Positions 19,597 to 40,037 of a stretch of DNA of 55,859 nt are shown in pieces. A program made the translations under genes and the position numbers. The DNA comes from a virus (taxonomy: Duplodnaviria; Caudoviricetes): positions 1 to 55,859 of the IMG/VR virus record IMGVR_UViG_3300044899_000002, one strand, 5' to 3'. The notes under the pieces are model-generated. The model made no database searches and was not told where the DNA came from. It worked only from the letters and a program-made list of their open reading frames with translations. Numbering within the stretch: position 1 is the first letter of the stretch; every line of letters begins with the position of its first letter.

Positions 19597-20397
19597 ATGG
19601 CTGGCAGCTTCCCGCTCGTCAAGGGCACGCGCGCCCGCTTCACCAAGGTCAACGGTTGCGGTATGCCCGTCGCCGGGCCACGCAACCGACTGGTCACCAG
19701 CGGCTACGTGTCGCTTGGCCTGACCGCCGTGATGCGTGACGCCACCGACCTCACGCAGGACAACGCCGAGGGCAAGGAGTGCGTCCAGGACCGCACCGAG
19801 CCGGAACGTCGTTGGTACACCCCGGCCCTGGAGCTGTGCCAGGTGGACCCCGACGTGGTGACGATGTTCACCGGGTGGGAGGCCATCCTGGACGCAGACG
19901 GCGAGGTCATCGGGTTCCAGGATGACAAGCGCATCGAGTCCGATTTCGCCATCGCAATGGAGCTGTGGACCTCGGGCAAGTCCGCCGACGACTGCCCCGA
20001 CCTCCCCGAGTCCGACCAGATTCTCACGGCCACCGGCAGCGGTCGCAAGTTCGGCTATTTCCTGTTCGCCGGTACCGAGTGGGTCCCCGGTGACATCACC
20101 ATCAGCGCGTCGGTCGCCACCCTCACGCTGACGGGCCGGACCATCGCCCTGCCGCACTGGGGCAAGGGTCCCTACAACGTCATGTCCGACGCGGACGGTG
20201 ACCCCGTGCGCCTCCTGACGCCGATGAACAAGACGGCCCACCTGCGGGTGTTCCGTACTGCCGTCGCGCCTCCCGAGGTCACCAACGGCGCGGTGCCGCT
20301 GGGTACGTCCACCCTGTTCACCGGCACCAAGTATTACTACGGTGGCCCGGCGGACGAGGCACCCATCGACGTGGCCCCGGTGCAGCTCGCCGCGTAA
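19597..20397 (+). CDS. Major tail (tube) protein
   Basis: AGGAGG RBS; 266 aa; RFTKVNGCG, NAEGKECV and WGKGPYNV; followed by a stem-loop. Confidence 0.85.
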   Translation: MAGSFPLVKGTRARFTKVNGCGMPVAGPRNRLVTSGYVSLGLTAVMRDATDLTQDNAEGKECVQDRTEPERRWYTPALELCQVDPDVVTMFTGWEAILDADGEVIGFQDDKRIESDFAIAMELWTSGKSADDCPDLPESDQILTATGSGRKFGYFLFAGTEWVPGDITISASVATLTLTGRTIALPHWGKGPYNVMSDADGDPVRLLTPMNKTAHLRVFRTAVAPPEVTNGAVPLGTSTLFTGTKYYYGGPADEAPIDVAPVQLAA

Positions 20398-22550: not shown

Positions 22551-23222
22551 ATGACTCAACCGCAGATGACGCCGCCCGATGACGGCGCAACGCCCACCCC
22601 GGTCGCACCGCTTACCGACGCCGAGCGAGCCGCCGCCACCGCACAGGTCGCAGGCACCGCGCTGCCGGTCACGGGCGCGGTGACGCCGCCGAGCACCGGC
22701 CCGTCGGATGCGGCGTTCGCCGCCGGTACCGACACCGCTGCCGACCAGGCGACCACGCCGCCGGACCCCGCCCCCGTCGTGGCCAACCCGCCCCCGGCCC
22801 CGACCGACAGCCAGGTGGTCAACGCCATCCCCGAGTCCGACACGCCCAGCACCGAGGTCAGCGTCACCGACGACGGCAACGTCATCGTGCTGGCCGAGCG
22901 GTTCGACGTGACGCTGGCGGGCGAGACGTGGCCCTACGGCACCGTTGAGTTCAAGGGCGACCTGTTGGGCATCCGGCTGCCGACGCGCCAGGCGCTCGCG
23001 GCGTTCTCGCTGTCGTCGTCCAAGTACGTCAGCCTCAACGTCAAGAATGACCTGACGGGGCTGTTCATCGCCCGGCACCTGTCCCCCGAGTCCTACGGTC
23101 GGGTGTTCTCGCGGCTGATGGACCCCGACGAGGATGACTACGACGTGGAGACGGTCGGCGAGCTGTTCAACGTCATCGTGATGGCAGCCGTGGACGCAGA
23201 TAAGGCCGACGACGCCGGGTAA
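22551..23222 (+). CDS. Tail assembly chaperone
   Basis: Immediately upstream of the tape measure; acidic; AAGGA RBS. Confidence 0.7.
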   Translation: MTQPQMTPPDDGATPTPVAPLTDAERAAATAQVAGTALPVTGAVTPPSTGPSDAAFAAGTDTAADQATTPPDPAPVVANPPPAPTDSQVVNAIPESDTPSTEVSVTDDGNVIVLAERFDVTLAGETWPYGTVEFKGDLLGIRLPTRQALAAFSLSSSKYVSLNVKNDLTGLFIARHLSPESYGRVFSRLMDPDEDDYDVETVGELFNVIVMAAVDADKADDAG

Positions 23223-23250: not shown

Positions 23251-26200
23251 GTGACCGATGTAGGGAAGATCAGTCTTGGCGTCGAGATCGACGCCAGTGA
23301 CCTGTCCTCCCGCCTCGGTGAGGCCGTGCGTCGGGCTATCGCCCCGGCCCTCGCGCAGATCAACGAGGAGCTGAACAAGGTTCAGCGCGGCTACGAGGAC
23401 ACCGCCAAGTCCGCCGAGCGGTCGGCCACTCGTCAGGTCAACGCACTCAAGCGCGTCCAGCGCCAGGCCGAGCAGACGGCGGCGGCTGTGCGCACCGCCC
23501 AGCAGGCCGGTGGTGGCCCGAACTCGAACAACCCCGCAGGCGGTGGGGGCAATGGCGGCGGTGCCTCGAACGACAACCGCCGGTACGACAACCGCGACAA
23601 CCGCAAGTACGACCAGCGCACGGTGGACAACCGGCGCATCGACAACAGCCGAGACAACAGCCGGGACCAGCGCCGATACGACAACCGGCGCTATAACACC
23701 AGCAACAAGTACGACAACCGCACGATCAACAACACCACCTACGACCACCGGGTTTACAACTACTACGGCCCCGGTGGTCCAGGTCCCAACGGTCCAGGAC
23801 CGGGCGGCGGCAACGGCAACAACCGAGGCGGTGGCGGCGGCGGTCGCGGCGTCCTCGGGATGCTCACCTCACCGCTCGGCCTCAACGGCATCGCGCTCGG
23901 CGCGGCGGCGCTGCCCGCCGTGGCCACGGGCGTGGTCAACATCGTCGGCGCGGTGCAACAGCTTGGACAGGCTGGCCTCGCGCTGCCCGGTATTTTCGCC
24001 GCTGGTGCGGCGTCCATCGGCACGGCGGTCGTCGGGTTCAAGGGTATGGGCGATGCGGTAAAGGCGCTCAACGAGGCCGCTAAGTCCGGCGACATGACCA
24101 AGGCCAACGAGGCGCTGAAAGATATGGACCCCGCCGCGCAGGCGGTGGCGAAAACCGTATCCGGCCTGGTCCAGGGTCCGCTCAAGGAACTCAAGAAAAC
24201 CGTTCAGGGCAAAATGTTCGACGGGTTCGACAAGGACCTACAGTCGGCGGCGGACAAGACACTGCCCCGACTCACCGCCGGGATGGCCAAGACTGGCGAG
24301 GCGTGGAACGGAACTCTCAAGGGCATCACCGGGGCGCTGTCGTCGGACTCGTCGCTCGGGTTCATGGACCGCATTTTCGGCAACACCGCCGAGGGGCAGA
24401 AGCGCGCCAACGCGGCCATTGGCCCGCTCATTCACGGTATGGGCCAGCTCGCCACGACCGGCAGCGATTTCCTGCCCCGCCTCGGCGACGGCATCGCCAA
24501 GGTGGCAAATCGGTTCGATGCGTTCATTACCAAGAATGCCGCCAACGGCAACCTGTTCCGCTGGATTGACGAGGGGCTGAACGGGCTGCGCTCGTTCGGC
24601 AACGCCATCCTCAACGTCGGCAAGTTCATCACCGGCCTGACCAAGGCAGCGGGCCAGGCCAAGGGGTCCCTGTCCGGTGACGGCGGGTTCCTCGGCGGGC
24701 TGGAGCGGTTCACCGGCAAGTGGGCCGATTTCGTCAACAGCCCCGCAGGTCAGAAGCGCCTCGGTGACTTTTTCCAAGGTGGCACGGGCGACCTCGCGCG
24801 CATCGGCGACACGCTAAAAGCCATCTGGCCCGCCATCCGCGAAATCATCGAGGGGTTCCAGACGTGGGGCCGGATCATCGCCCCCATCGTCGGGGCCATC
24901 GCCAACCTCGTCGGCGCGCTGGGCAACGTGCCCGGCCTGCTGGAGGCCATCGTGGTCGGGTTCCTCGCCTGGCGCACCATCGGCGGCATCATCGGCGGCA
25001 TCACCACCAAGCTCGGCGGTGCAACCGGGGCCATCGGCAAGTTCGGCAAGGCGCAGGCGGGTATCGCTGGCCTCGGCATCGCGGCGGCGGGGACCGTGAT
25101 GCAGCAGAACGCGGGCGACAACGTGGGCAGCCAGATCGGCGGCGCGGCCATGACCATCGGCGGCAGCGCGCTGACCGGCGCGATGCTCGGCAGCGTCATC
25201 CCCGGCGTCGGCACCGCCATCGGCGCAGCGGGCGGCGCGGTGGTCGGCACCGGCCTCGCGGCGTACAACGCGCTGCTGAACGAGAACAAGACAGCCAACG
25301 ACAAGGCGGCGGCTGCCGAGGCCGCACGGGCGTCGGCGCTGGAGCGCAGTGCGGCGGCTATGGACATCAGCAAGGCCGGGATGAAATCGGCCACCGACGC
25401 GCTGGCCGAGTCCGGCGGCGTCGTGGACCCGACCGTCCTGGCGGGCGTCGGCCAGCAGGTCAACGCCATCCCCGAGAAACTGGCCGGGGCATACGACGAA
25501 AACACGCTCAAGGGCATCCAGACCGCGCTCGCCGGGGTCAACATGACCACCGAGCAGATGTCCGCGACCATCACCGCCGGGGGTCCCCAGTTCGACGCCC
25601 TCACCGCACGGCTGAACCTCATGGGTCCCGCCGGGCAGATCGCTGCCGCCCAGCTCGCCAGCATCCGCGACAACACGCTGGGCGCTGCGCAGAACGCCAG
25701 CGTGGCCGCGCCGTTGCTCCAGCAGCTCGCCGACAACTACGGCGGCGTGGCCAGCGCGCAGGTGGCCGTCCAGAATGCGTTTGCGGCCATCCCGCAGGAC
25801 GTGCCCATCAACGTCTCGATGCCCGGCCATGAGGCCGTGGAGGAGATTCTGCGCAACATCGGCGCGCAGGTGGACCACAACAAGGACGGCAGCATCATCA
25901 CCAAGGTGCCGCTGGCACCGGACACCATCGCGCAACTGGAGGCCATCGGCGTCAAGGTGCAGCAGAACAAGGACGGCACCATCCAGGTGTCGGTCCCCGA
26001 GGGCCAATACATCGACACCCTCAACAAGCTCAACGTCCTCGGTGACGCCTACAAACGACTGTTCGCTGGCACCCCCGCGCTGCCCAACGTGCCCGCCCCG
26101 CCGTCGAACCCGAACACGCAGGCGGCGGACCCGTTCCAGTTGCCCAAGCCTCCAGGCGGCGCGGACGGCAAGATCATCGGGCGTATGGGCGGCGGCGTGC

Positions 26201-29200
26201 TGCCCGGCTACAGCCCCCGCGTGGACAACATCCTCTACCCGATGGCGGGCGGCGGCGTGCAACCGCTGTCCGGCGGCGAGGGCATCCTGATCCCCGAGGC
26301 CGTGCGCGCCCTCGGCGGTGCGCCCGGCATCTATGCCATCAACAGCCAGTTCCGCAGCGGGCTGTCCCGGCGCGGCTACGGCATGGCGGGCGGCGGCGTG
26401 TTCGGTGCCGACGACGGGGCCGTCATCGGCGAGGCGGGCACCGGCCTCGGTCCCCTGCCCGGCCCGGTCGCACCGGGGCCGGACACCGAGCTGTCCGTCC
26501 TCATCAGCATCCGCGACCTGCTCGCGGGCAAGGGCGGCACCGCAGGCAACCCGCTGGCGGCGACGGCGGCGAACACCGCCACCACCGCGACGGCGGCGAC
26601 GAACACGACCGGCACCGGGGGCGGCGCTATGGGGCCGTTCGGCACGCCCCTCAAGTCGCGCGGCAACATCGGCTACAAGATGGCGGCGGCGGCTATCTCG
26701 GCGCTCGGCGGGGACCCCGCCGAGTTCATCGGCACCGACCCGTCGGCGGCTGCCGCGACGGCCACCGCGACGATGCCGGGGATGCCCGGCGCGACCACGA
26801 CGGCCACCACGGTGGACGTGGCGGCGCTCCAGCGGTTCGCCGCCTCGGGCAACACCGCCGACCTGCCGCCAGGGCTGACCATCAACAGCCCGGCGGTCAC
26901 CGCCATCCTCGCCGCACGCAACAAGAAAAAGGGCGGGCTGGACGACGCGGCGCTGTCCGACCTCGTTGGCCAGGCGCTCGGCCCCGGCGGGTTCACCGGC
27001 ACGCTGGACCCCACGAATACCCCCATCGTCAAGGCGCTGGAGAAGCTGCGGACCAAGGGCGTGCCCGGCACCCCGGCGGCGGGCGGGTTCGCCCCCACCG
27101 CTGCGGCTACCGGCGTTCCGATGACGGCGCTGCCCGCTGGCGCGAGCGGCATGATGGACCCCGTTTCGGCGTTCGCGCAGCGCGCGACCGGCGGGCGTTA
27201 CGATTGGGGTGCCAGCGACCTGTCCGCCGGGCTGTCCGATTGCTCGGGCGCGGTGAGCGACCTGGTGGAGCTGATCACCAAGGGCCAGGCCAGCCCTGAG
27301 CGTCTGTTCTCCACGGCGGACGCGGCGTCGGTGCTCAAGTCCCTCGGCGCGGTGGAGGGGGCCGTGCCGGGTGCGCTCCAGATCGGGTGGAGCGACACGC
27401 ACATGCGGTCCACGCTGCCCAACGGTGTCAATTTTGAGTCCGGCGGGCAGACCGGCCAGGGCGCGACCTACGGCGGCAACGCACAGGGCGCGGCGGGTAT
27501 GCCCAACATCATGTCCCTCGCCGTCCCCGGCGGGCTGCCGATGGTGCCGGGTATGGCTGGCACGTCGGCCTCGGGGCTGCCCGGTTCCTCGGGTGGCCAA
27601 GGCACCGCCGTCTACGTCACCAACTGGCCGGGCGGCGGCGGTGGCCTCGCCGGGATGATCGGCAAGCAAGCACTGGGCGCGGGCGTCGATGCGGCGGGCC
27701 AGGCGGGCATCGGCGTCGTCGGCGACATCGGTGCGGCCATCACCGACTCGATGCTGACGCCGGACGGCAAGAGGATGCCCAACGCCTCGCTGACTGACCT
27801 GGTGAGCCAGCGCAACCCGCTGGCCCTCGCCGCTGCCGCTGGGCTGAACGTGGAGGACTTCACGCGCCAGGGCGGTGCCGGTGGCCCGGTGGAGCAGAAC
27901 GCGCAGGCATACGACGCCAGCGGGCGCATGTTCTCGGACACGGGCGCGCTGATGGACCGCACCATGACCAACCTCAACGCGCAGCTCCAGGCCATGCGCG
28001 AGCAGTTGGTGGATGTCATCACGCAGGTGGCCGACAAGCTCAACGACAGCGCGCTGGAACCCGTCATCAAGGCGGGCATGACGGCGGCGCTGGACAACCT
28101 CAAGAGCAGCATTTCCAGCGCCATCGGCGGCAGCCTCGGCGAGGCGGCAGCCCCGCCCATCGCCGAGGCGGTGAGCAGCGCGGTGGCCAACCTGCCCATT
28201 GACCAGTCCGGCGCTGGCGGCGTCGGCGGCAACGCGGCGGGCGTCGTCACCGGGGTCATCGGCATGGCCGGGGGCGGCGGCGTGTTCGGCGGCAAGGCGG
28301 GCAAGGACTCGGTACCGGCGATGCTGATGCCAGGGGAGTTCGTGTTCAACACCACCGACGTGGCCCGCCTCGGCGGCGTCGGCGGTGCGGAGGCGTTCCG
28401 CCAGGCGCTCGGGCGTACCGGCGGCGTGCGCAAGTTCGCACAGGGCGGCGGCGTCGATGTCAACAGCACCGTCGGCGCAGAGTTTTTCGGGCTGTCCGAG
28501 GTGCCCATCATCAGCACCATCGTCAACATGCTGGTTAAGGTCCTCCTCCAGGTGCTCGGTGTCACCATCGAGGGCCGGGACACGTTCAACGAGCTGACTG
28601 ACGAGTTCCGCCAGTTCCGTGGGGACAGCTTTAAGGCGTTCGACGCGCAGGGCCGGTTGCTCAACGACACGTCCGCCCTCATCGACCGCAGCTCGTCGTC
28701 CGAGGAGGTGGCCGCGCAGGAGCGCATCCGCATCCTCAAAATCGTCATCCAGGCGCTCGTCAAGTACATCATCGAAAAGGTCATCGTCCCCATCGCCAAG
28801 GCGGTCGCTAACTCGGTCATCCAGGCCGGTGCCTCGGCTGCCGGTGCGGCGACCAACGCGGGCGCGCCTGGTGCTGGCGGCATCGTCTCCAGCCTGATCA
28901 GCTCGGCGGGCAGCGCAGGCGTGGACATCGCTGCCGAGGTCGGCACCGATTTCGCGCTGGCCATCAGCGAACAGTTGATTGCCACCGTGGCCGAGGGGCT
29001 ACAGGGTGTTTTCCCCGACCTGATGACGGGGCTGTTCTCGGGTGCCGGTGCGGCCAACCTGTTCGGCCCGCTGGGCACGATCCTGACCACGGTGCTGGGC
29101 GGGTTCCTCGGTGGGTTCACCGGCCTGTTGGGCGGCGGTGTCCTCGGCGGCGCGTCCACCCTCATCCCCGGCATTCCGTTCGACCAGGGCGGCATGGCGT

Positions 29201-29418
29201 CCGGCGTTGGCTACCTGCCCAAGGCCACGATGGACGACGAGCTGGTGCTGTCTCCTGGCGAGACTGACCTGTTCTCGCGGTTCGTCGGCGCACTGGAGCG
29301 CGGCGGGTTCGGCGGGGGCGGCAACCGCACCGAGGTCCACGCGCCCATTACCATCGTGGGCGGCGGGCGCGAGACTGCCGACCAGGTAGAAAACCGACTG
29401 CTCGCGCTGATGCCGTAG
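23251..29418 (+). CDS. Tape measure protein
   Basis: 2055 aa, Ala/Gly-rich; VGKISLGVEID N-terminus; internal DCSG...H hydrolase-like motif. Confidence 0.95.
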   Translation: MTDVGKISLGVEIDASDLSSRLGEAVRRAIAPALAQINEELNKVQRGYEDTAKSAERSATRQVNALKRVQRQAEQTAAAVRTAQQAGGGPNSNNPAGGGGNGGGASNDNRRYDNRDNRKYDQRTVDNRRIDNSRDNSRDQRRYDNRRYNTSNKYDNRTINNTTYDHRVYNYYGPGGPGPNGPGPGGGNGNNRGGGGGGRGVLGMLTSPLGLNGIALGAAALPAVATGVVNIVGAVQQLGQAGLALPGIFAAGAASIGTAVVGFKGMGDAVKALNEAAKSGDMTKANEALKDMDPAAQAVAKTVSGLVQGPLKELKKTVQGKMFDGFDKDLQSAADKTLPRLTAGMAKTGEAWNGTLKGITGALSSDSSLGFMDRIFGNTAEGQKRANAAIGPLIHGMGQLATTGSDFLPRLGDGIAKVANRFDAFITKNAANGNLFRWIDEGLNGLRSFGNAILNVGKFITGLTKAAGQAKGSLSGDGGFLGGLERFTGKWADFVNSPAGQKRLGDFFQGGTGDLARIGDTLKAIWPAIREIIEGFQTWGRIIAPIVGAIANLVGALGNVPGLLEAIVVGFLAWRTIGGIIGGITTKLGGATGAIGKFGKAQAGIAGLGIAAAGTVMQQNAGDNVGSQIGGAAMTIGGSALTGAMLGSVIPGVGTAIGAAGGAVVGTGLAAYNALLNENKTANDKAAAAEAARASALERSAAAMDISKAGMKSATDALAESGGVVDPTVLAGVGQQVNAIPEKLAGAYDENTLKGIQTALAGVNMTTEQMSATITAGGPQFDALTARLNLMGPAGQIAAAQLASIRDNTLGAAQNASVAAPLLQQLADNYGGVASAQVAVQNAFAAIPQDVPINVSMPGHEAVEEILRNIGAQVDHNKDGSIITKVPLAPDTIAQLEAIGVKVQQNKDGTIQVSVPEGQYIDTLNKLNVLGDAYKRLFAGTPALPNVPAPPSNPNTQAADPFQLPKPPGGADGKIIGRMGGGVLPGYSPRVDNILYPMAGGGVQPLSGGEGILIPEAVRALGGAPGIYAINSQFRSGLSRRGYGMAGGGVFGADDGAVIGEAGTGLGPLPGPVAPGPDTELSVLISIRDLLAGKGGTAGNPLAATAANTATTATAATNTTGTGGGAMGPFGTPLKSRGNIGYKMAAAAISALGGDPAEFIGTDPSAAAATATATMPGMPGATTTATTVDVAALQRFAASGNTADLPPGLTINSPAVTAILAARNKKKGGLDDAALSDLVGQALGPGGFTGTLDPTNTPIVKALEKLRTKGVPGTPAAGGFAPTAAATGVPMTALPAGASGMMDPVSAFAQRATGGRYDWGASDLSAGLSDCSGAVSDLVELITKGQASPERLFSTADAASVLKSLGAVEGAVPGALQIGWSDTHMRSTLPNGVNFESGGQTGQGATYGGNAQGAAGMPNIMSLAVPGGLPMVPGMAGTSASGLPGSSGGQGTAVYVTNWPGGGGGLAGMIGKQALGAGVDAAGQAGIGVVGDIGAAITDSMLTPDGKRMPNASLTDLVSQRNPLALAAAAGLNVEDFTRQGGAGGPVEQNAQAYDASGRMFSDTGALMDRTMTNLNAQLQAMREQLVDVITQVADKLNDSALEPVIKAGMTAALDNLKSSISSAIGGSLGEAAAPPIAEAVSSAVANLPIDQSGAGGVGGNAAGVVTGVIGMAGGGGVFGGKAGKDSVPAMLMPGEFVFNTTDVARLGGVGGAEAFRQALGRTGGVRKFAQGGGVDVNSTVGAEFFGLSEVPIISTIVNMLVKVLLQVLGVTIEGRDTFNELTDEFRQFRGDSFKAFDAQGRLLNDTSALIDRSSSSEEVAAQERIRILKIVIQALVKYIIEKVIVPIAKAVANSVIQAGASAAGAATNAGAPGAGGIVSSLISSAGSAGVDIAAEVGTDFALAISEQLIATVAEGLQGVFPDLMTGLFSGAGAANLFGPLGTILTTVLGGFLGGFTGLLGGGVLGGASTLIPGIPFDQGGMASGVGYLPKATMDDELVLSPGETDLFSRFVGALERGGFGGGGNRTEVHAPITIVGGGRETADQVENRLLALMP

Positions 29419-30869: not shown

Positions 30870-31937
30870 GTGCCCGTCGTCACCGATGACCAGATCATCT
30901 CGTTGCACACCGCCAGCGGGGTGACGCTTTACCAGTTCCTCCCCGAGCACTACAGCGAGTCCTCCTGGACCCGCGACCAACGAGACGCCAGCCGGTCCAC
31001 CATCAACCTGCCCCCGCAGGACGGCCTCGCCGAGCTGCCCGACATCATGCCGTGGTTGCACCACGTCACCGTGTTCGACGGCGAGCGCGACGTGGTGCTG
31101 TGGACCGGCCCCGTGCAAAAGGCCAGCAAGAATCGCGGCGGGCTGACGCTGACGTGCAAGGACCACGCCGCCTACCTCGCGCGCACGCGGGACCCCATCA
31201 CCAAGCGATGGGACGCCGCCGACCCCGCCGAGATCGCCGCCGAGCTGTGGCGGCTGATGCAGGACCAGCAGGGCATCGGCACCCGCGTCATCGAACGCCG
31301 GGACCCCGAGGGCGAGCGGTTCGATTTCGCCACCGTCGCCGATGACCAGATGTTGGACCAGACCATCAGCAGCCTGGTGGACAAGGGGCTGCGCTGGGCG
31401 GTCGTGTCCGGCACCGCCATCATCGGGCCGGTCGGCCTGGACCCCATCGCCACGCTGTCAGAGGACGATTTCATCGGCGACGGCATCACCCTCACCCGCG
31501 ACGGCAGCGCCGTCTACAACGACGTGATGGTGCGCGGCGCGGACGTGCGCCACCGCGAGCGCGTCGATTTCTACGGGCAGAACCTCCAGACCATCCACAA
31601 CGTGGACGACATGTTCGGGGTCAGCAACGTCAAACGCGCCGCCCAGCAGTACGTCCGGCACACCGGGACGGTGCGCACCCGCCTGGAGCTGCCCGGTGGC
31701 ACCGTGCTCCACCCCGACGCGCCCGTGTCGATTGACGAGCTGATGCCCTCCACCCGGTTCATCATCGAGGCCGAGGGCATCCGCCAGCTCATGGAACTCA
31801 CCGGCATCGAGGTCGCCCGCCGGGCCGGAACCACTAGCGTGTCGGTGACGATGGAGTCCGTGGAGGAGGACATCGAACTACTCAAGAAACAGGGTGACCA
31901 GTTGCCGCAGCAGACGTTGGGCGGGCGGTCGTTGTGA
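30870..31937 (+). CDS. Minor tail protein (hub-like)
   Basis: 355 aa; VLWTGPV; synteny. Confidence 0.8.
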   Translation: MPVVTDDQIISLHTASGVTLYQFLPEHYSESSWTRDQRDASRSTINLPPQDGLAELPDIMPWLHHVTVFDGERDVVLWTGPVQKASKNRGGLTLTCKDHAAYLARTRDPITKRWDAADPAEIAAELWRLMQDQQGIGTRVIERRDPEGERFDFATVADDQMLDQTISSLVDKGLRWAVVSGTAIIGPVGLDPIATLSEDDFIGDGITLTRDGSAVYNDVMVRGADVRHRERVDFYGQNLQTIHNVDDMFGVSNVKRAAQQYVRHTGTVRTRLELPGGTVLHPDAPVSIDELMPSTRFIIEAEGIRQLMELTGIEVARRAGTTSVSVTMESVEEDIELLKKQGDQLPQQTLGGRSL

Positions 31938-34381
31938 CGACCACGCTGCCGGGCCGTGCCCCGAGCACCGACACCGAGCTGGTGCGCTCGTTCCACGACC
32001 GCATCCGCAAGCTGGAGACGGCCCCGACCGTGCGCGTGGGGCCGTGGGTGCTGTCCAACGACGCCGCCACGGGCGCGCTGCGGGCCACCCGTCCCGGCCA
32101 GGTCGTGCTCATCGACGGCGAGGGCGCGACCGAGCTGGACCCGGTAAAGGTAGACCTGTCCGGCCTGGTCACCAACACCCAACTGGACCACGCGCTGGCG
32201 GGCGTCGGCGGACTGCCCGACCTCGGGGCCATCGCAGAGTCCATTTTCGGCTCGCTGTATACGCAGCTCACCGGGTTCCTCAACCCCGTCTCGGCGCTCA
32301 CCCAGCTCGCCAACTTTTTCAAGCTGGAGCTGGGCGGGGCCATCACGCCGGGGCGGCTGCCCCTCATCCCGCTGTCGCACATCCGCAACGTCCAGCCCAA
32401 CCTCCTGGTTGACGGCTCGTTCGATGACGAGAACACCCTGGCCGGGTTCCCAGATTGGGACTACGACGAGGCCGACGGCAAGTCCCGACCGGGGTGCGCG
32501 TACACCGTCGCCGACGGCACCACCCACACGCTGCACAGCAATCCCATCGAGGTCGGCGCTGACGACACGCTGGACGTGGAGGCGTGGGCCAAGTGGACCG
32601 GCCTGACCACCAGCGCGCCCAACCCCATCACCGTCGCGGTGGCCAGCTACACCGCCGCCGGGGTGCTCATCGGTGGCGCGCCCGCCGTCCTGACCAACGC
32701 AGGCGGCAGCGGCGGCACCGTGGGGTGGACCGGCGGCACGATATTCACCAACTGGGACGTGCCCAACACCGCCGCCTACGTCGTGCTGGAGCTAACCGTG
32801 GCCAACACCGCCACGGCGGGCACGGTCAAGTTCGATGACCTGGTGGTGCGCAAGACTGGCACCCTTCCCCAGTCCTACGTCACCGGCCTGGTGGGCGCGC
32901 TCGGGGCGGCGGCGCAGGGAATCCAGGACCTCATCAACCAGATATGGACCGGCATTACCCGCCAGGTTCTCGATGGCCCCAAGGCGCTGCCCGACCTGTG
33001 GGAGGTGCTGGGCGACATCCCCGCGTTCAGCATCGGCGGCGTCGGCGGGCTGACCAACATGGCCGACACCATCACCCAGACGTGGACGCAGCTATGGGGC
33101 GGGTTCGCGCAGGCGATTGGCGCGGGCGGCAAGTCCATCGCCGACGCCGCCAACGCGGCGGGCAACGTGGCCTCCACCGCCGACCAGGCGCAGGACCTCG
33201 CCGAGTGGACCAACGCTGTCCAGGGCATCCGCAACAACAAGCCGTTCGACAGCGGGATGGACCCCACCGCCGTCTCGATGTTCCCCATTCCCGCCGCCAC
33301 CGCGTCCGGCGGTGAGCCGCCCTACCTCAACGCCACCTCGGCGTCGGTCCCGATGGCGTTCTGGATTGCCCCCGAGGACGCACAGCGCGGGTCCATCCAG
33401 TGGCTCGGCAAGGGCAACGCCAACATCACCGCCCTCTACATCGACGTATACCGACTGAACACCACGACCGGCGCGGCCACGCTCATCCACACCAGCCCCG
33501 ACCAGTTCCCCAAACTGACCGCTGGCCTCAAGCTCATCCGCTACGACATGGCCACCGCCGACCGCATCGCGGTGGCCCACGCTGACGTGCTCGGGTTCGC
33601 CTGGCGCGTCACCGGCACCGGCACCCACCAGGTGGCCATGCGCTACGGGCTGGCCACCGGGGACACCACGCAGGTGCCCCAGCGCCCCAGCGCGGTGCGT
33701 ACCGGCACGCTGGTGGGCAACATGGCTGCCGGTGCCGTGCCATACGGCGGTGACGTGCCGTGGGTGGCGTTCGGCATCGTGACCGGCGACGTGGCCCCGC
33801 CGTTTTTCAATCCCCGCACCACCGAGTTCGCCACGCCCGGCGCGGGCCAGGTCTACGACATCCCGACGTGGGCCAACTATCTGGACATCGTGCTCATCGG
33901 TGGCGGCGGCGGTGGTCGCGGCGGCAACGGCGGCAACACCATCGCGGGCCAAGGCGGGTTTGCCGGGCAGTGGCGCACCGAGACGCTGGTGCGCGGCGTG
34001 GACTTCCCCGCCAACGCCAGCCAGGTCATCCTTGACATCGGTACCGGCGGCAACGCAGGCGGCAAAGAACAGGCAGGCCAGGCGGGCACCGTGACGGTGC
34101 GCCGCGCCATCGTCGGCGGCAAGGCGGTGCTGACGGCACCCGCCGGTAACGGTGGCCAGGTGGAGGACAACAACCTCTCGGCGGGCGGTTCGCCTGGTGA
34201 CATCACGTTCGGCGGCAAGCCCTACGTGGGCGGCATCGGCGGCGTCGGCGGTCGGCCCGGCTCAAACGCCTCGGCCCCCGGTGCGGGCGGCGGTGGCGGC
34301 TACGGCGGCATTTACACCGTCGGCTACGCGGGCGGCAATGGTGGGCGTGGCGGCGGCTGGGTCACCGCTCGGGCGACGTAA
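31934..34381 (+). CDS. Minor tail protein with a carbohydrate-binding-like domain and a Gly-rich C-terminus
   Basis: RIRKLET, NLLVDGSFD...KFDDLVV, YLDIVLIGGGGGG. Confidence 0.8.
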   Translation: MTTTLPGRAPSTDTELVRSFHDRIRKLETAPTVRVGPWVLSNDAATGALRATRPGQVVLIDGEGATELDPVKVDLSGLVTNTQLDHALAGVGGLPDLGAIAESIFGSLYTQLTGFLNPVSALTQLANFFKLELGGAITPGRLPLIPLSHIRNVQPNLLVDGSFDDENTLAGFPDWDYDEADGKSRPGCAYTVADGTTHTLHSNPIEVGADDTLDVEAWAKWTGLTTSAPNPITVAVASYTAAGVLIGGAPAVLTNAGGSGGTVGWTGGTIFTNWDVPNTAAYVVLELTVANTATAGTVKFDDLVVRKTGTLPQSYVTGLVGALGAAAQGIQDLINQIWTGITRQVLDGPKALPDLWEVLGDIPAFSIGGVGGLTNMADTITQTWTQLWGGFAQAIGAGGKSIADAANAAGNVASTADQAQDLAEWTNAVQGIRNNKPFDSGMDPTAVSMFPIPAATASGGEPPYLNATSASVPMAFWIAPEDAQRGSIQWLGKGNANITALYIDVYRLNTTTGAATLIHTSPDQFPKLTAGLKLIRYDMATADRIAVAHADVLGFAWRVTGTGTHQVAMRYGLATGDTTQVPQRPSAVRTGTLVGNMAAGAVPYGGDVPWVAFGIVTGDVAPPFFNPRTTEFATPGAGQVYDIPTWANYLDIVLIGGGGGGRGGNGGNTIAGQGGFAGQWRTETLVRGVDFPANASQVILDIGTGGNAGGKEQAGQAGTVTVRRAIVGGKAVLTAPAGNGGQVEDNNLSAGGSPGDITFGGKPYVGGIGGVGGRPGSNASAPGAGGGGGYGGIYTVGYAGGNGGRGGGWVTARAT

Positions 34382-36124: not shown

Positions 36125-36508
36125 ATGGCTGTCGGACCCACCACGTACTTGGTCAACAAGCTGCTGGACCTCGCGCTGCGGAACGTCGCATGGACGCCCC
36201 CGGCCATCGTCTATTTCAAGCCTCACGTAGGGGACCCCGGCGCGGCTGGCGCGGCCAACCCGTCGGCGCAGACGACCCGCGTGGCCGTCACGTTCTCGGC
36301 TGCCGCTGCGGGCGTGGTCAACCTGTCCGGCACCCCCGAGGTAACGCTGAACGCCACCGAGACGATTTCTCACGGTTCGTTCTGGGACGCCTCCACGGGT
36401 GGTAACTGCCTGTGGACCGCGCAGGCTGCCGTGGCCAAGGGTGGCGTGGCCACCGACATCATCCGACTCACTGCCATCCAGCTCGGGTTTACCGGGCTGG
36501 CGGCGTAA
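36125..36508 (+). CDS. Minor tail/structural protein
   Basis: NKLLD, HVGDPGAAG, FWDASTGGNCLW. Confidence 0.75.
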   Translation: MAVGPTTYLVNKLLDLALRNVAWTPPAIVYFKPHVGDPGAAGAANPSAQTTRVAVTFSAAAAGVVNLSGTPEVTLNATETISHGSFWDASTGGNCLWTAQAAVAKGGVATDIIRLTAIQLGFTGLAA

Positions 36509-36516
36509 GGGGAACC

Positions 36517-36897
36517 ATGACCACCGCCGTGCCGTCCACCGTCATCTGGGGAGTCCAGTGGGAGGTGTTCGTGATGCCCGCCTCGTTCGAGGGCGAGCGC
36601 CCCAAGCCGCCGGACATGCTCGGCGAGGACCCCACCGAGGCCGAGGTGGACGCCTACAACGAGGCGTCAGCGGCGTTCGTCACCGCCAACGCGGCGTTCG
36701 AGGCCGAGATGGTCACCGTGGCGCAGGACGAGGCCAACTGGTTCCACACCGTCAGCACGATGGACGACGAGCAGTCTGCCCGCGAGACGCTGACGGTGCT
36801 GCGCGATGCCAACGAGGGCAACCCGTTCAACCGCGCGTTCGAGCTGGTCAAGGCCAACCGCCCCCGCTGGGTCGTCGTGCCGGTGGACGCCGAGTAG
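36517..36897 (+). CDS. Acidic hypothetical protein
   Basis: AAGGGG RBS; 126 aa. Confidence 0.75.
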   Translation: MTTAVPSTVIWGVQWEVFVMPASFEGERPKPPDMLGEDPTEAEVDAYNEASAAFVTANAAFEAEMVTVAQDEANWFHTVSTMDDEQSARETLTVLRDANEGNPFNRAFELVKANRPRWVVVPVDAE

Positions 36898-37541
36898 TGA
36901 GCGCCACGGTATGCCTGGCTGAAAACCTGACCATCGGACCCGATGGCCAGCTACGCCTTGCGCCGTGGTCCCGTCCGCGCAACGTCGTGGACGTGCTCGC
37001 CCCCTCGGGTGCGGACACCACCAAGCTGCTGGCCACCGAGACGCTGCCCGGTCGCCTGCTCATCGACCGCCGGGTTGAGTGGACCAACGACAGCCCGGTG
37101 GACCACGACATCCGCGTGCTCGTCACCCGGCGGTGGCGGCGGTGGGTCACCTCGAACCCCAACGCCATCGAGTTCCGCGACCGCTGGTCCTCGGCCATCA
37201 CCCCCGCCGACAGCGCGGTGCCCATCGACCCCGCCGAGCCGGTCACGTCGGGCTACTACAACAGCCAGACCGGCAGCGCCGGGGACATCGGCACCAACAG
37301 CGTGGCCGAACCCCAGCCGGGCAAGTTCTGGCACTGGTGGGGCACCAACACGTCCGAGGAGTGGCTGGGGCCGGTCGGCCCTGGCGACACCATCCGGCTG
37401 TGGTATCGCGGCTACGTCTGGACGCCTGGCCCGTTCTCGGACAACGCCAACAAGAACAGCCCCGCCCATGAGGCCGAGGCGGGCTGGGCGCGCATCCAGC
37501 TCATGGCGTTCCCCGACCAGGGCAAGGTCGTGACCGGGTGA
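36897..37541 (+). CDS. Putative tail-tip protein, paralog 1
   Basis: GTG coupled to the upstream TAG; WTNDSP and RIQLMAFP motifs shared with the next two genes. Confidence 0.7.
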   Translation: MSATVCLAENLTIGPDGQLRLAPWSRPRNVVDVLAPSGADTTKLLATETLPGRLLIDRRVEWTNDSPVDHDIRVLVTRRWRRWVTSNPNAIEFRDRWSSAITPADSAVPIDPAEPVTSGYYNSQTGSAGDIGTNSVAEPQPGKFWHWWGTNTSEEWLGPVGPGDTIRLWYRGYVWTPGPFSDNANKNSPAHEAEAGWARIQLMAFPDQGKVVTG

Positions 37542-38137
37542 GCGTGAAAATCTGCACCGCCGAGTACATGATCAGCGACGTTCGGGGCACGGGCGTGGCC
37601 CGCACCTGGCTGCCGCGCGTCGTGTCCGAGCAATTCCTGGAGTCCACCAAGGACGGCGAGATCAAGCTGTCACCGGACCCGGTAACCATGATCGACGGCG
37701 ACCTAACCTGGTTCAACAACAGCAAGGACGCGCAGCGCATCGGCGTCTCGGTCCACCGCGCCCCGCGCATGATCGTCGCGCAGTCGCCCAGCACCGTGGT
37801 CATCCACGACGCCTGGTCCCACCAGGTCGGTGCCAGCCCCGAGGCCGATTACCCCAGCGTCATCGCCGACACGTTCGGCGGGCGCATCCAGATCGACCGC
37901 GCCTCGGCGTCGGCCAATGACCTGCTGTTCGGGCGTTACATCCTCATCGGTGACGACAGCATCCGGTGGGTGGACCTCGGCATCGTGCCGCCCCGTCAGT
38001 CGTTCCATTTCCGCTACATCGCCGCCGTGCAGACGCCCGGCACCTGGACGCTGCCGGGCAGCGACAGCGACGTGGTGGGCCGGTGGGAAGCACACGCGCG
38101 GTGGACGCGCCTGACTGCGATGGCGGTGCCAGCATGA
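37538..38137 (+). CDS. Putative tail-tip protein, paralog 2
   Basis: GTGA overlap; WFNNSK and RLTAMAVP. Confidence 0.7.
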   Translation: MSVKICTAEYMISDVRGTGVARTWLPRVVSEQFLESTKDGEIKLSPDPVTMIDGDLTWFNNSKDAQRIGVSVHRAPRMIVAQSPSTVVIHDAWSHQVGASPEADYPSVIADTFGGRIQIDRASASANDLLFGRYILIGDDSIRWVDLGIVPPRQSFHFRYIAAVQTPGTWTLPGSDSDVVGRWEAHARWTRLTAMAVPA

Positions 38138-38895
38138 CCAACCCCACCCCCTGCGTGGACCCGCTGCATTTCGAGGTCCTGGAGGACGGCAGCATCCGGC
38201 CACAGCCGTGGATGCAATGGCGCAACATCGCCAGCGTCATCGCCGCGAGCAAGTCCGGCACCTACGGCGTCACCCTCCAGTCCGGCGGCGTCGGCGGCAC
38301 CCCGATTTTCGGCACCCTCGGGTCCCTGTTCGGCTCGCTGTTCTCGTTCATCCCCACCATGTTCGGGTCGTCGGGGTTCCTCTCGGGGCTGCTGGCGTCG
38401 GCGTCGGCGGGCGGCAACAAAAACGACCTCATCCACAGCCTCACGCGGACGTGGACCAACGACACGCCCGTGGCCCAAGATGTCTATGGCCTCATCACGC
38501 GCGGCGGCTGCCGGGTCACCCTCCAGGCTCGCTCGCGCGGCGGGCTGGTGCTGGCGTCCGGCTACAAGGTCGGCGCGCTCGGGGACCCCGGCCCCCTGGT
38601 CCCGGCGTCCATGTTCGGCGTCGGCGCGGACATCGGGCGCGGCGGCACCCTGGCCATCGGCACCCAGTTCTGCGTGGCCGAGGAGCGCATGAACAGCGTC
38701 ACCATCCCGCTGGCCCCCGAGCGCACCGGCTGGGCGCGTCTCCAGCCCGGTGAGTCCATCACCGCTCGGGTGGAGCTGCGGTTCGTGTCCGAGTTCTGGG
38801 AAAACACCACCATCGACGGCGGCGACTCGGGCACCGAGTCCGGCTACGAGACGGGCGACACGCGACTGGACCTGTTCGCCGTGCCGGTACTCTAA
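38134..38895 (+). CDS. Putative tail-tip protein, paralog 3
   Basis: ATGA overlap; WTNDTP and RLDLFAVP. Confidence 0.7.
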   Translation: MTNPTPCVDPLHFEVLEDGSIRPQPWMQWRNIASVIAASKSGTYGVTLQSGGVGGTPIFGTLGSLFGSLFSFIPTMFGSSGFLSGLLASASAGGNKNDLIHSLTRTWTNDTPVAQDVYGLITRGGCRVTLQARSRGGLVLASGYKVGALGDPGPLVPASMFGVGADIGRGGTLAIGTQFCVAEERMNSVTIPLAPERTGWARLQPGESITARVELRFVSEFWENTTIDGGDSGTESGYETGDTRLDLFAVPVL

Positions 38896-38922
38896 AGGTC
38901 AATCCCGACCTCGGAGGGTAAT

Positions 38923-39291
38923 TTGTACGACCCCACCCCTGGATACATCGACTGCGAGTCCGACGGCGAGGACCACCCGACGCCGCCCGGTCACCCGTAC
39001 CGCGAGCTGGAGGTGGACGGCATCGGCATCATCCACGCCCGCAAGCCGCTGCCCAACGCCATCCCGGCCCTCGCCGGGGCGGCAAACGCCCGCGTCAGCC
39101 ACATGACGCGCATTGATCAACTGGACATATTCATCCAGAACCACGTCGCGGAGGGCGAGTTCGAGGCGCTGCTGGCGCGGATGATGGACCCCGACGAGGA
39201 CATGCCGCCGGACACGATGTTGCGGGTGAGCCGGGCCATAGCGACAGCAGGCACCGCCCGCCCTACACGGCGGTCATCAACCTCGCGTTGA
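38923..39291 (+). CDS. Tail assembly chaperone-like protein (G-like)
   Basis: GGAGG RBS before TTG; ARMMDPDED resembles SRLMDPDED in 22551-23222; has RPT near its end. Confidence 0.65.
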   Translation: MYDPTPGYIDCESDGEDHPTPPGHPYRELEVDGIGIIHARKPLPNAIPALAGAANARVSHMTRIDQLDIFIQNHVAEGEFEALLARMMDPDEDMPPDTMLRVSRAIATAGTARPTRRSSTSR

Positions 39292-39599
39292 TGGCCGCGC
39301 ACAACTGGCGGGCGTTGCGCACCCGCGCGCTGGACAAGGGCATCGGTCACCTGATGGACCTGTCCTCCATGCACATCGTGCTGGACATCATGGAGCAAAT
39401 CGGCCTGGAGTCCTCCACCCATGACGCCAAGACAAAGGCCGAAGCACTGGGCAAGATCAGCAGCTATTACGACAAGCTGTATAAGCCGGACCCGGTGGCC
39501 ATCAAGGTCAACGGCGGCGAGATCGGACCCCCGCCGGGCTGGTCCGACGCCGAGGTGGAGGCGTCGTTTGATGCGTTCCTATCGGCAGGTGGCGGCTGA
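39288..39599 (+). CDS. Hypothetical protein, probable -1 frameshift (GT-like) extension of the upstream gene
   Basis: In the -1 frame relative to the upstream ORF; GC3-biased codons already start at 39261. Confidence 0.65.
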   Translation: MMAAHNWRALRTRALDKGIGHLMDLSSMHIVLDIMEQIGLESSTHDAKTKAEALGKISSYYDKLYKPDPVAIKVNGGEIGPPPGWSDAEVEASFDAFLSAGGG

Positions 39600-39629
39600 T
39601 ATGCGCGCGGACACGATACCCTGATCAGC

Positions 39630-40037
39630 ATGGCAATCGTCGCCGTCCTGATGGACACCAACGCCGCGCCCGGTGCCAAGCTGGACCCGGCCCTGCGTGC
39701 CGAGATTGAGAAGCTGGCCCCCGGCCTGGAAATCGGCGAGGTCGGCACCGACGAGCTGGCCGACAACGCGGTGACCGATGCCAAGATCAAAGAGGGCGCG
39801 GTCCACAGCGAGCACATCGCCGAGGGCGAGGTAAAGGCCATCAACCTCGGGTCCAAGGCGGTCGGCACCAACGCCCTCGCCGACGACTCGGTGACGGGCC
39901 GGACGGCTGGCCCCGGCGTCGTCACCGCCAAGGACCCGGCGGGCAACTACATCGAGTCCGAGGAGTGGCACGGCACCGCTGCGGCGTTCGCCCAGATCAA
40001 TCCCCGGCTGCCCAACGTCACCTATTACGTGGTCTGA
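39630..40037 (+). CDS. Fibre-like protein with 10-aa repeats
   Basis: GEVGTDELAD/NAVTDAKIKE/GAVHSEHIAE/GEVKAINLGS/KAVGTNALAD. Confidence 0.7.
   Translation: MAIVAVLMDTNAAPGAKLDPALRAEIEKLAPGLEIGEVGTDELADNAVTDAKIKEGAVHSEHIAEGEVKAINLGSKAVGTNALADDSVTGRTAGPGVVTAKDPAGNYIESEEWHGTAAAFAQINPRLPNVTYYVV

Follow-up and report, generated by a model that had tools for sequence, protein, structure and literature searches.

The lambda proteins gpG and gpGT, and a tail-assembly-chaperone frameshift that is conserved in long-tailed dsDNA phages, were reportedly described by Levin in 1993 and by Xu, Hendrix and Duda in 2004. In E. coli dnaX, a -1 slip takes place on the heptamer A_AAA_AAG, an SD-like stimulator lies upstream, and the shifted product is the shorter one. 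Cluster B phages and their relatives, among the largest sequenced groups of actinobacteriophages, are the textbook exception to the tail-chaperone frameshift rule of long-tailed phages. In particular, two genome announcements state that B1 phages have no chaperone frameshift (PMC10793310; PMC12352053), and the accessible passages of two other Cluster B papers name only the chaperone adjacent to the tape measure protein (TMP) gene. The minimal accepted -1 site is the tetranucleotide Z_ZZN, on which one tRNA re-pairs, as in the CGA_AAG cases; A_CGA_AAG in Bacillus cdd and G_CGA_AAG in IS1222 are such sites (PMC5009743). The CCC_U cases in that review are +1 shifts, and no description of C_CCU as a used -1 site was found.

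Here, we analyse a gene pair whose two overlapping frames would be joined by a programmed -1 ribosomal frameshift at C_CCU, yielding a 225-aa fusion beside a 122-aa form; we give this reading a probability of about 0.85. As judged from comparative sequence evidence, a frameshift is very probably present in a second chaperone gene, within a phage group published as lacking one. A full-text literature search, with subscription papers outside its reach, found no published report of it, and the accessible text of the PRFect supplement contains no Cluster B phage names.

The two reading frames and the candidate slip site

The window, by which we mean the whole stretch of DNA that was analysed, is a virus contig from IMG/VR with a length of 55,859 bases and a completeness of about 79%. 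Its kin are the Cluster B mycobacteriophages, the nearest record being that of Imvubu (86.6% nucleotide identity over 38700-39800). The relevant features are:

19597-20397: major tail gene.
22551..23222, plus strand: TMP-adjacent paralogue, with Phage_TAC_16 at residues 112-216 (Pfam E 5.4e-37; phrog_1118 'tail assembly chaperone').
23251..29418, plus strand: tape measure protein gene, 2055 aa (phrog_934, full length).
38913..38918, plus strand: SD-like GGAGGG, read from the bases, 4 nt 5' of the ORF1 TTG; its function is presumed.
38923..39291, plus strand: ORF1, the frame-0 product, 122 aa with a TTG start; Phage_TAC_16 at residues 1-114, then an 8-residue non-conserved tail.
39259..39266, plus strand: invariant octamer CGCCCTAC, with zero entropy in 25 of 25 distinct split junctions.
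39261-39264, plus strand: slip tetranucleotide C_CCT, formed by the Arg codon CGC (39259-61) and the Pro codon CCT (39262-64).
39264..39599, plus strand: -1 frame coding region after the putative slip, 111 codons and a stop; a conserved 9-codon stretch, the ATG, then DUF7240.
39265..39269, plus strand: 5-nt spacer from slip codon to hairpin; the stem offset is identical in the 24 distinct split sequences folded.
39270..39298, plus strand: predicted stimulatory hairpin with a 12-bp stem (39270-39281 with 39287-39298) and a 5-nt loop, from RNAfold, RNAalifold and pair counts.
39291..39599, plus strand: ORF2 as annotated in relatives' records, ATG start, 102 aa (39288-39599 in the ORF list).

The original prediction quoted bases 39256-39293 correctly in both frames, where frame 0 runs from GCC CGC CCT ACA to CGT TGA and the -1 frame from CCC TAC ACG to GCG TTG ATG. 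The ORF1 stop (39289-39291) and the ORF2 ATG (39291-39293) overlap as TGATG. The -1 frame has been open since 39117, yet it contains no ATG, GTG or TTG until 39288. ORF2 had been described as having no clear Shine-Dalgarno sequence and, by eye, no GGAGG-like motif occurs in the 25 nt 5' of 39291. Likewise, the poor codons reported near the end of ORF1 are borne out for CCT and ACA, which are rare in 20 chosen ORFs of the window (19 of 585 Pro and 11 of 660 Thr codons).

The domain content of the two ORFs is well defined. ORF1 matches Pfam PF23781 Phage_TAC_16 over model positions 1-114 of 114 (E 9e-42; 142 bits, cutoff 27), and the match stops exactly at residue 114, the Pro of the slip codon; it also matches phrog_915. 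ORF2 matches Pfam PF23888 DUF7240 above the gathering threshold (E 1.8e-39; 134.7 bits; model positions 1-102 of 104). Moreover, phrog_941 (233 positions) covers both, with ORF1 at 1-117 and ORF2 at 127-227; the gap of 9 positions between them is matched by the nine -1-frame codons that separate CCT from the ATG.

The proposed mechanism is as follows. Ribosomes translating ORF1 would arrive at CGC_CCU (39259-39264), where the 12-bp hairpin located 5 nt downstream would resist unwinding. In a fraction of them, tRNA-Pro would re-pair from CCU to the overlapping CCC (39261-63), making UAC in the -1 frame the next codon, and these ribosomes would continue into the 225-aa TAC_16-DUF7240 fusion. Non-slipping ribosomes would stop 9 codons on, releasing the 122-aa short form. 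Slippage itself, its rate and the ribosomal site (A or P) in which tRNA-Pro would slip are matters of inference. The spacing is canonical if CCU occupies the A site at the moment the ribosome encounters the stem; the slip would then probably take place at that stage or during translocation. Mycobacteria decode CCU by a tRNA with a GGG anticodon through a G:U wobble, which would favour the shift to CCC. There is no tRNA-Pro gene in the window.

Conservation of the junction and its hairpin

Thirty-one loci were compared (the window, 10 annotated phage records and 20 IMG/VR loci), which contain 27 distinct junctions and include some phages entered twice, via two collections. In 29 of the 31 loci, the split has one and the same -1 offset and CGC CCT AC never varies, with ..G[TS]ARPT.. 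in frame 0 and ..PY.AV.. in the -1 frame; both the slip sequence and the -1 peptide, whose conservation in relatives had been proposed as a check, are kept. The two remaining loci, Dori gp35 (232 aa) and L013:832-1500 (222 aa), are single ORFs that both read ..ARP-Y.AV... The CGC CCT split also recurs in all four loci that were added, namely an M. abscessus prophage, harman, LittleMunchkin (Gordonia) and ReqiPine5 (Rhodococcus); ReqiPine5 has TTC where the other added loci carry ACN.

The conserved frame changes from 0 to -1 exactly at CCT (39262-64). Across the 25 distinct split junctions, the third positions of frame 0 have the highest entropy in the 42 nt upstream (1.13 vs 0.35 and 0.41), and the third positions of the -1 frame have the highest entropy in the 43 nt downstream (0.70 vs 0.45 and 0.30). 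Further, the -1 frame is unconserved 5' of the slip site (RPP/CAP/GAP/CPP), and the frame-0 tail past CCT is variable in sequence, with its stop 6, 12, 21, 27 or 30 nt after CCT. The slip from CCT to CCC had been predicted at 39261-39264, which is where the invariant C_CCT and the frame switch both fall. Among the 14 upstream codons, the Arg codon alone has an unvarying third position in the 25 distinct split junctions; this wobble C yields CCC in the -1 frame, so tRNA-Pro would be able to re-pair. The window contains a single copy of the octamer CGCCCTAC joined to the beginning of the hairpin, where 0.01 copies would be expected, and the junction pattern is far beyond chance.

The site is a tetranucleotide, C_CCT, in line with the proposal of a non-heptamer slip site. 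Since C_CCT occurs in frame 5 more times in 20 ORFs of the window, the tetranucleotide alone is not sufficient. Two other ways of reading the site were rejected. A pause at a hungry ACA codon is unlikely because the codon after CCT is not conserved (ACA, ACG, ACC or ACT, and TTC in ReqiPine5). Tandem slippage on the C_CCU_UUC heptamer of ReqiPine5 would leave a hairpin that begins just 1 nt past the heptamer, so this locus is read as the same C_CCU site with a Tyr-to-Phe change.

A mistaken or decaying sequence could produce a similar split. The window comes from a metagenome assembly, where the gain or loss of one base in a C run is a frequent error, and the split could be such an error or a tolerated inactivating mutation, leaving a downstream frame that is decaying or irrelevant. 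However, among 522 phage records that match a fusion protein, 60 evenly spaced rows were sampled, and the match is in two pieces in 59 of them; the 60th, ReqiPine5, is itself split and was matched in one piece because its second half has diverged beyond the reach of tblastn. Two other environmental runs provide contigs that cross the locus with 68 and 75 substitutions and have no indel near the site. Moreover, the -1 frame stays open for 101-124 codons, with -1 codon-position variation across lineages down to about 35% identity. Error or decay is hardly credible as an explanation. The comparison of sequences shows the site, the hairpin and the switch of selection from one frame to the other.

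The hairpin, which was absent from the original prediction, is the second conserved element. The 125-nt region folds with an energy of -61.4 kcal/mol in RNAfold (z -3.37). RNAalifold, applied to 17 split sequences chosen for diversity, retains the stem and finds double changes in 6 of its 13 predicted pairs. Of 11 core pairs, 6 have compensatory changes and 96.8% of the cells are paired, a result that none of 500 shuffles reached; when the partner was slid by 1-3 columns as a control, 21-65% were paired. For example, one compensating pair joins two synonymous Ala wobble positions and is GC in 11 sequences, CG in 6 and broken in 0. In Gordonia phages, a change in a Val codon offsets amino-acid changes in the opposite hairpin arm.

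The stem lies at the identical offset in each of the 24 distinct split sequences, where its energy ranges between -16.6 and -29.6 kcal/mol (mean -20.5). In 13 naturally fused forms, the energies are -4.2 to -19.8 kcal/mol (mean -12.7) and the stem is lost in several; the difference has a Mann-Whitney p of 4e-6 with kinship ignored. Overall, C_CCU, a 5-nt spacer (5-9 nt is usual in such cassettes) and a 12-bp stem with covariation have the make-up of a -1 cassette. The hairpin 5 nt downstream would make this a regular Z_ZZN site with a stimulatory structure, rather than an odd site that works without help. The 5' arm overlaps the nine conserved codons, so their nucleotide conservation could partly reflect RNA structure. 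The 3' arm carries the ORF1 stop (39289-91) and the ORF2 ATG (39291-93).

An outer stem in the single-sequence fold (39256-62 with 39307-13) is not conserved, with 2 pairs left in RNAalifold, and was discarded. A search of 39150-39450 against Rfam returned no match at E <= 1. The G-rich stretch 10-16 nt 5' of the slip site corresponds to a Gly codon context.

Start codons of the downstream frame and natural fusions

Several lineages appear unable to start the downstream frame near its beginning, and this is, on the sequences compared, the strongest single argument for a frameshift. In Pipefish, a B3 phage, ATG, GTG and TTG are absent from codon -87 to codon +79 around the Tyr codon, and gp42 as annotated is a 37-aa stub. 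The first start after the Tyr codon is at +30 in Jeon and harman and at +43 in ReqiPine5. Acadian-type phages end ORF1 two codons past CCT, and the 9 conserved codons sit in an annotated 'intergenic' gap. Two observations fit a downstream ORF that depends on ORF1 for its translation: the offset is -1 in every split locus, and starts are missing for the first 9 conserved codons here and for 30-79 codons in the lineages just named (Pipefish, Jeon, harman and ReqiPine5).

In the window and most Cluster B relatives, an ATG lies 9 codons past the site and overlaps the ORF1 stop (TGATG). This arrangement would suit a reading with no frameshift, in which ORF2 is translated alone from ATG 39291 (or TTG 39288) through termination-reinitiation at TGATG, and the two proteins are a split fusion. 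Existing annotation agrees with two proteins. In line with the original prediction, by which no such frameshift is usually annotated in Cluster B-type genomes, all 15 GenBank records examined have two separate genes at this locus and none has a joined CDS. Likewise, 59 of the 60 sampled rows contain two features, all named 'hypothetical protein', and ReqiPine5 lists gp34 only. Reinitiation leaves unexplained, however, both the nine conserved -1 codons that precede the ATG without a start and the fixed wobble C of the Arg codon. For Pipefish, Jeon/harman and ReqiPine5, it would also mean a first start that falls 30-79 codons inside the conserved domain. In the window, the ATG has no Shine-Dalgarno motif and is buried in a stable hairpin, within its 3' arm. 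We consider reinitiation as the sole source of ORF2 unlikely. Because the ATG overlaps the ORF1 stop, ORF2 could also arise by this route, and reinitiation may operate alongside frameshifting and make ORF2 alone.

The product of the proposed frameshift has natural counterparts. The L013 fusion, used as a query, matched 65 protein clusters: 14 combine the two Pfam domains in a single chain (213-228 aa), 50 have the chaperone domain only (122-129 aa) and 1 has DUF7240 only. When the 14 fusions are aligned, T, R, P, Y, A and V occur at the junction without exception. By this conservation, the fused TAC_16-DUF7240 protein is a real, conserved protein elsewhere. The anticipated junction, ..ARP followed by Y.., and a product of about 225 aa agree with these in-frame fusions, which share the junction, and with the lineages that have no downstream start.

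A further search, biased to the in-frame junction, yielded 18 loci, of which 13 are fused, 4 are split and 1 (L045) was unparsed and excluded from the counts. In the 13 natural fusions, the Pro codon is CCC, CCG or CCA, and the Arg codon is CGC in 9 of 13; in the split forms, the Arg wobble C is fixed in 25 of 25. The contrast in the Arg codon between split and fused forms has a Fisher p of 0.0097 when related sequences are treated as independent. In a maximum-likelihood tree built from 40 distinct rows, 27 of them split and 13 fused, the two states are interleaved and five changes are needed, of which at least three are forced by well-supported branches; L013 is nested in a split Cluster B clade. 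No direction of change is claimed, as the root of the tree is arbitrary.

The fused forms differ from the split forms by one added base at the Arg-Pro codons. In Dori, an extra C lengthens the C run (CGC CCC TAC vs CGC CCT AC), and in L013 the extra base lies inside the Arg codon. Together with the interchange of fused and split states at least three times on the tree, this difference would fit RNA polymerase slippage, by which a fraction of the mRNAs would gain one C in the CCC run and so carry the fusion as a single frame. Known cases of productive slippage by RNA polymerase involve homopolymers of roughly 6 bases or longer, with the stimulatory hairpin located upstream, within the nascent transcript. 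The C run here is just three long, and a 5-nt spacer with a downstream stem is the geometry of ribosomal -1 frameshifting; we therefore regard polymerase slippage as very improbable. Under the preferred reading of a ribosomal -1 frameshift, the repeated switching between fused and frameshifted forms would be a natural experiment on why phages retain chaperone frameshifts. The natural fusions also imply that the short form is dispensable in some lineages, which weakens a strict analogy to G/GT.

Possible role and comparison with known systems

The original prediction had pointed to a shared motif between ORF1 and the chaperone preceding the tape measure gene, and the motif is present as RMMDPDED in ORF1 and RLMDPDED in the 22551-23222 protein. 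The latter has a P/A/T-rich N-terminal region of about 110 aa, followed by its Phage_TAC_16 domain. It is 28% identical to the fusion over 67 aa, and a 25-nt DNA match (96%) links 23110-23134 to 39176-39200. A circular permutation was rejected, as the N-terminal 111 aa of the paralogue have no similarity to DUF7240. That the TMP-adjacent chaperone has no frameshift partner also holds: its stop is at 23222, the tape measure starts at 23251, and no other plus-strand ORF of at least 90 aa is listed in that region. In three records examined (Dori, Jeon and Shatter), no joined chaperone CDS precedes the tape measure gene. The paralogue and the distal pair co-occur almost throughout, in 521 and 522 records with near-identical genus tallies.

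An AF2 model of a fusion (pLDDT 82.3, pTM 0.76) combines a mixed N-domain with a C-domain of four helices (residues 115-187); an acidic helix at the C-terminus is poorly predicted. In BFVD, it matches proteins named 'Tail assembly chaperone' from Lilbeanie (Gordonia; 208 columns, TM 0.55, E 1.7e-4) and SilentRX (Arthrobacter; 181 columns, rmsd 4.4, E 6.8e-4); these alignments span nearly the whole length with TM values of 0.55-0.62, and many weaker rows are named alike. Several homologues are also named 'Tail assembly chaperone' in UniRef. Foldseek against the PDB returned nothing at E <= 0.001 for the fusion model, and VIA-align against 48,161 chains gave weak matches with Z < 5 (uncharacterised Bacillus 3fgx 4.9, YqbN 3.2, HK97 chaperone 3.0). 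The N-terminal part thus falls in a chaperone family by Pfam and BFVD, with weak matches to solved structures.

Next to the pair there is always a gene for a small 'tail fiber protein' (39630-40037 in the window) and one annotated as 'minor tail/virion structural'. The pair (38923-39599) lies after the minor tail genes and not in the interval from the major tail gene to the tape measure. Chaperone-family membership, co-occurrence with the paralogue and the neighbouring tail genes make a G/GT-like role the best guess. Pairs of the G/GT type are characterised by two products in a set ratio, both required in tail assembly and missing from virions, of which the shared domain binds the tape measure and the extension the tail tube protein. 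In such a role, the two products would resemble lambda gpG and gpGT, in that both would share the chaperone domain and the minority product would add a second helical domain that recruits another tail component. The clients may be the tape measure together with the tail tube, or else the adjacent fibre proteins. A complex prediction for the DUF7240 part (alignment A2, residues 112-222) with the major tail protein scored 0.00, which points neither way on binding. The earlier proposal that this pair is the lineage's G/GT equivalent, the 'missing G/GT pair' for the tape measure, is plausible but unproven.

A more tentative idea, which we consider possible though doubtful, is that the G/GT roles are divided between the paralogues. 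The TMP-adjacent protein would be the abundant 'G', and the distal TAC_16-DUF7240 protein would be the rare 'GT', dosed by the C_CCU frameshift or, where fused, by its own expression. If true, divided roles would explain the loss and regain of the frameshift at the identical codon at least three times, and these phages would be living intermediates of the origin and disappearance of a chaperone frameshift.

If the slip is real, hundreds of annotations (in more than 500 genomes) would need a joined CDS, and DUF7240 would be the extension domain of a chaperone. Moreover, C_CCU with a hairpin would be a used -1 site in high-GC hosts, and such sites would be missed by frameshift finders tuned to heptamers beside the tape measure gene.

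Compared to lambda G/GT, the locus has a small chaperone ORF that would likewise be extended by a -1 shift into an overlapping ORF with no dependable start of its own. The two predicted products would be N-terminally identical, and the N-domain belongs to a chaperone family within a siphovirus tail module. Unlike lambda G/GT, the pair is located some 16 kb past the start of the tape measure gene and is a second paralogue beside an unframeshifted TMP-adjacent chaperone; its slip site is the tetranucleotide C_CCU and not a heptamer such as G_GGA_AAG, and its long form is a single plain ORF in related phages. As in E. coli dnaX, a stem-loop at a short downstream spacer is predicted to stimulate a -1 slip and set the ratio of two products, but the site here is not a heptamer and the shifted product would be the longer one. 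The cdd and IS1222 sites share the single re-pairing tRNA, the Arg CGN codon ahead of the shifty codon and the 3' structure, whereas their shifty codon is AAG, read by tRNA-Lys, and the one here is CCU, read by tRNA-Pro. The closest counterparts are Dori gp35 and the 14 metagenomic fusion clusters, which match this locus in both domains, their order, the junction ..ARP-Y.AV.. and the neighbours. There, in contrast, one continuous ORF encodes the protein with no need for recoding, the Arg and Pro codons change synonymously, and most have a weaker downstream hairpin or have lost it.

Copies and neighbors of the chaperone pair

Directly upstream of the split chaperone pair (ORF1, 38923-39291; ORF2, 39291-39599), the window carries three phrog_282 paralogues in tandem (~36900-38895), two of which score Pfam DUF7172. 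Their positions are:

C-terminal part of 36399-37541: phrog_282 paralogue 1
37538-38137: phrog_282 paralogue 2
about 38134-38895: phrog_282 paralogue 3

The window contains two TAC_16 paralogues, ORF1 and the chaperone that precedes the tape measure gene, whose proteins share only 28% identity over 67 aligned residues. Their genes nevertheless have in common a 25-nt DNA stretch, spanning the R[ML]MDPDED motif, that is 96% identical (23110-23134 versus 39176-39200); such near-identity could have arisen by gene conversion or from codon bias. Moreover, the chaperone next to the tape measure gene begins with about 110 Pro/Ala/Thr-rich residues (22551-22880), which look disordered, and no similarity to DUF7240, the family of ORF2, was found within this N-terminal region.

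The proposed slip-site octamer and a tRNA call

The octamer CGCCCTAC, which contains the proposed slip site, has a sole other copy in the window, located at 33318-33325 within the minor tail gene 31934-34381. There, the codon phase differs and CCC TAC is read in frame; therefore, this copy was ruled out as a slip site of the kind proposed for the chaperone pair. Elsewhere, ARAGORN calls a 90-nt tRNA-Ser (anticodon cga) at 52560-52649, in a region with long ORFs on both strands, and this may be a false call.

The cassette in related phages

The downstream genes of two relatives are annotated at lengths shortened to the first available ATG. In particular, Pipefish gp42 (L029:1711-1824) is annotated at 37 aa and Jeon gp35 (L004:1561-1845) at 94 aa; counted from the Tyr codon, the first to be read after the proposed slip, the conserved -1 frame extends over 116 and 124 codons, respectively. 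Mycobacterium phage prophi79-1, a prophage of M. abscessus, likewise carries this split pair together with the same proposed slip site and the hairpin, and the cassette is therefore not limited to lytic M. smegmatis phages.

Further, the homologous site of Rhodococcus phage ReqiPine5 (L057:1161-1167) reads C_CCT_TTC and is followed, 1 nt past these seven nucleotides, by the start of a hairpin of -23.0 kcal/mol. The replacement of Tyr by Phe in the -1 frame has turned this site into what is formally a canonical X_XXY_YYZ heptamer.
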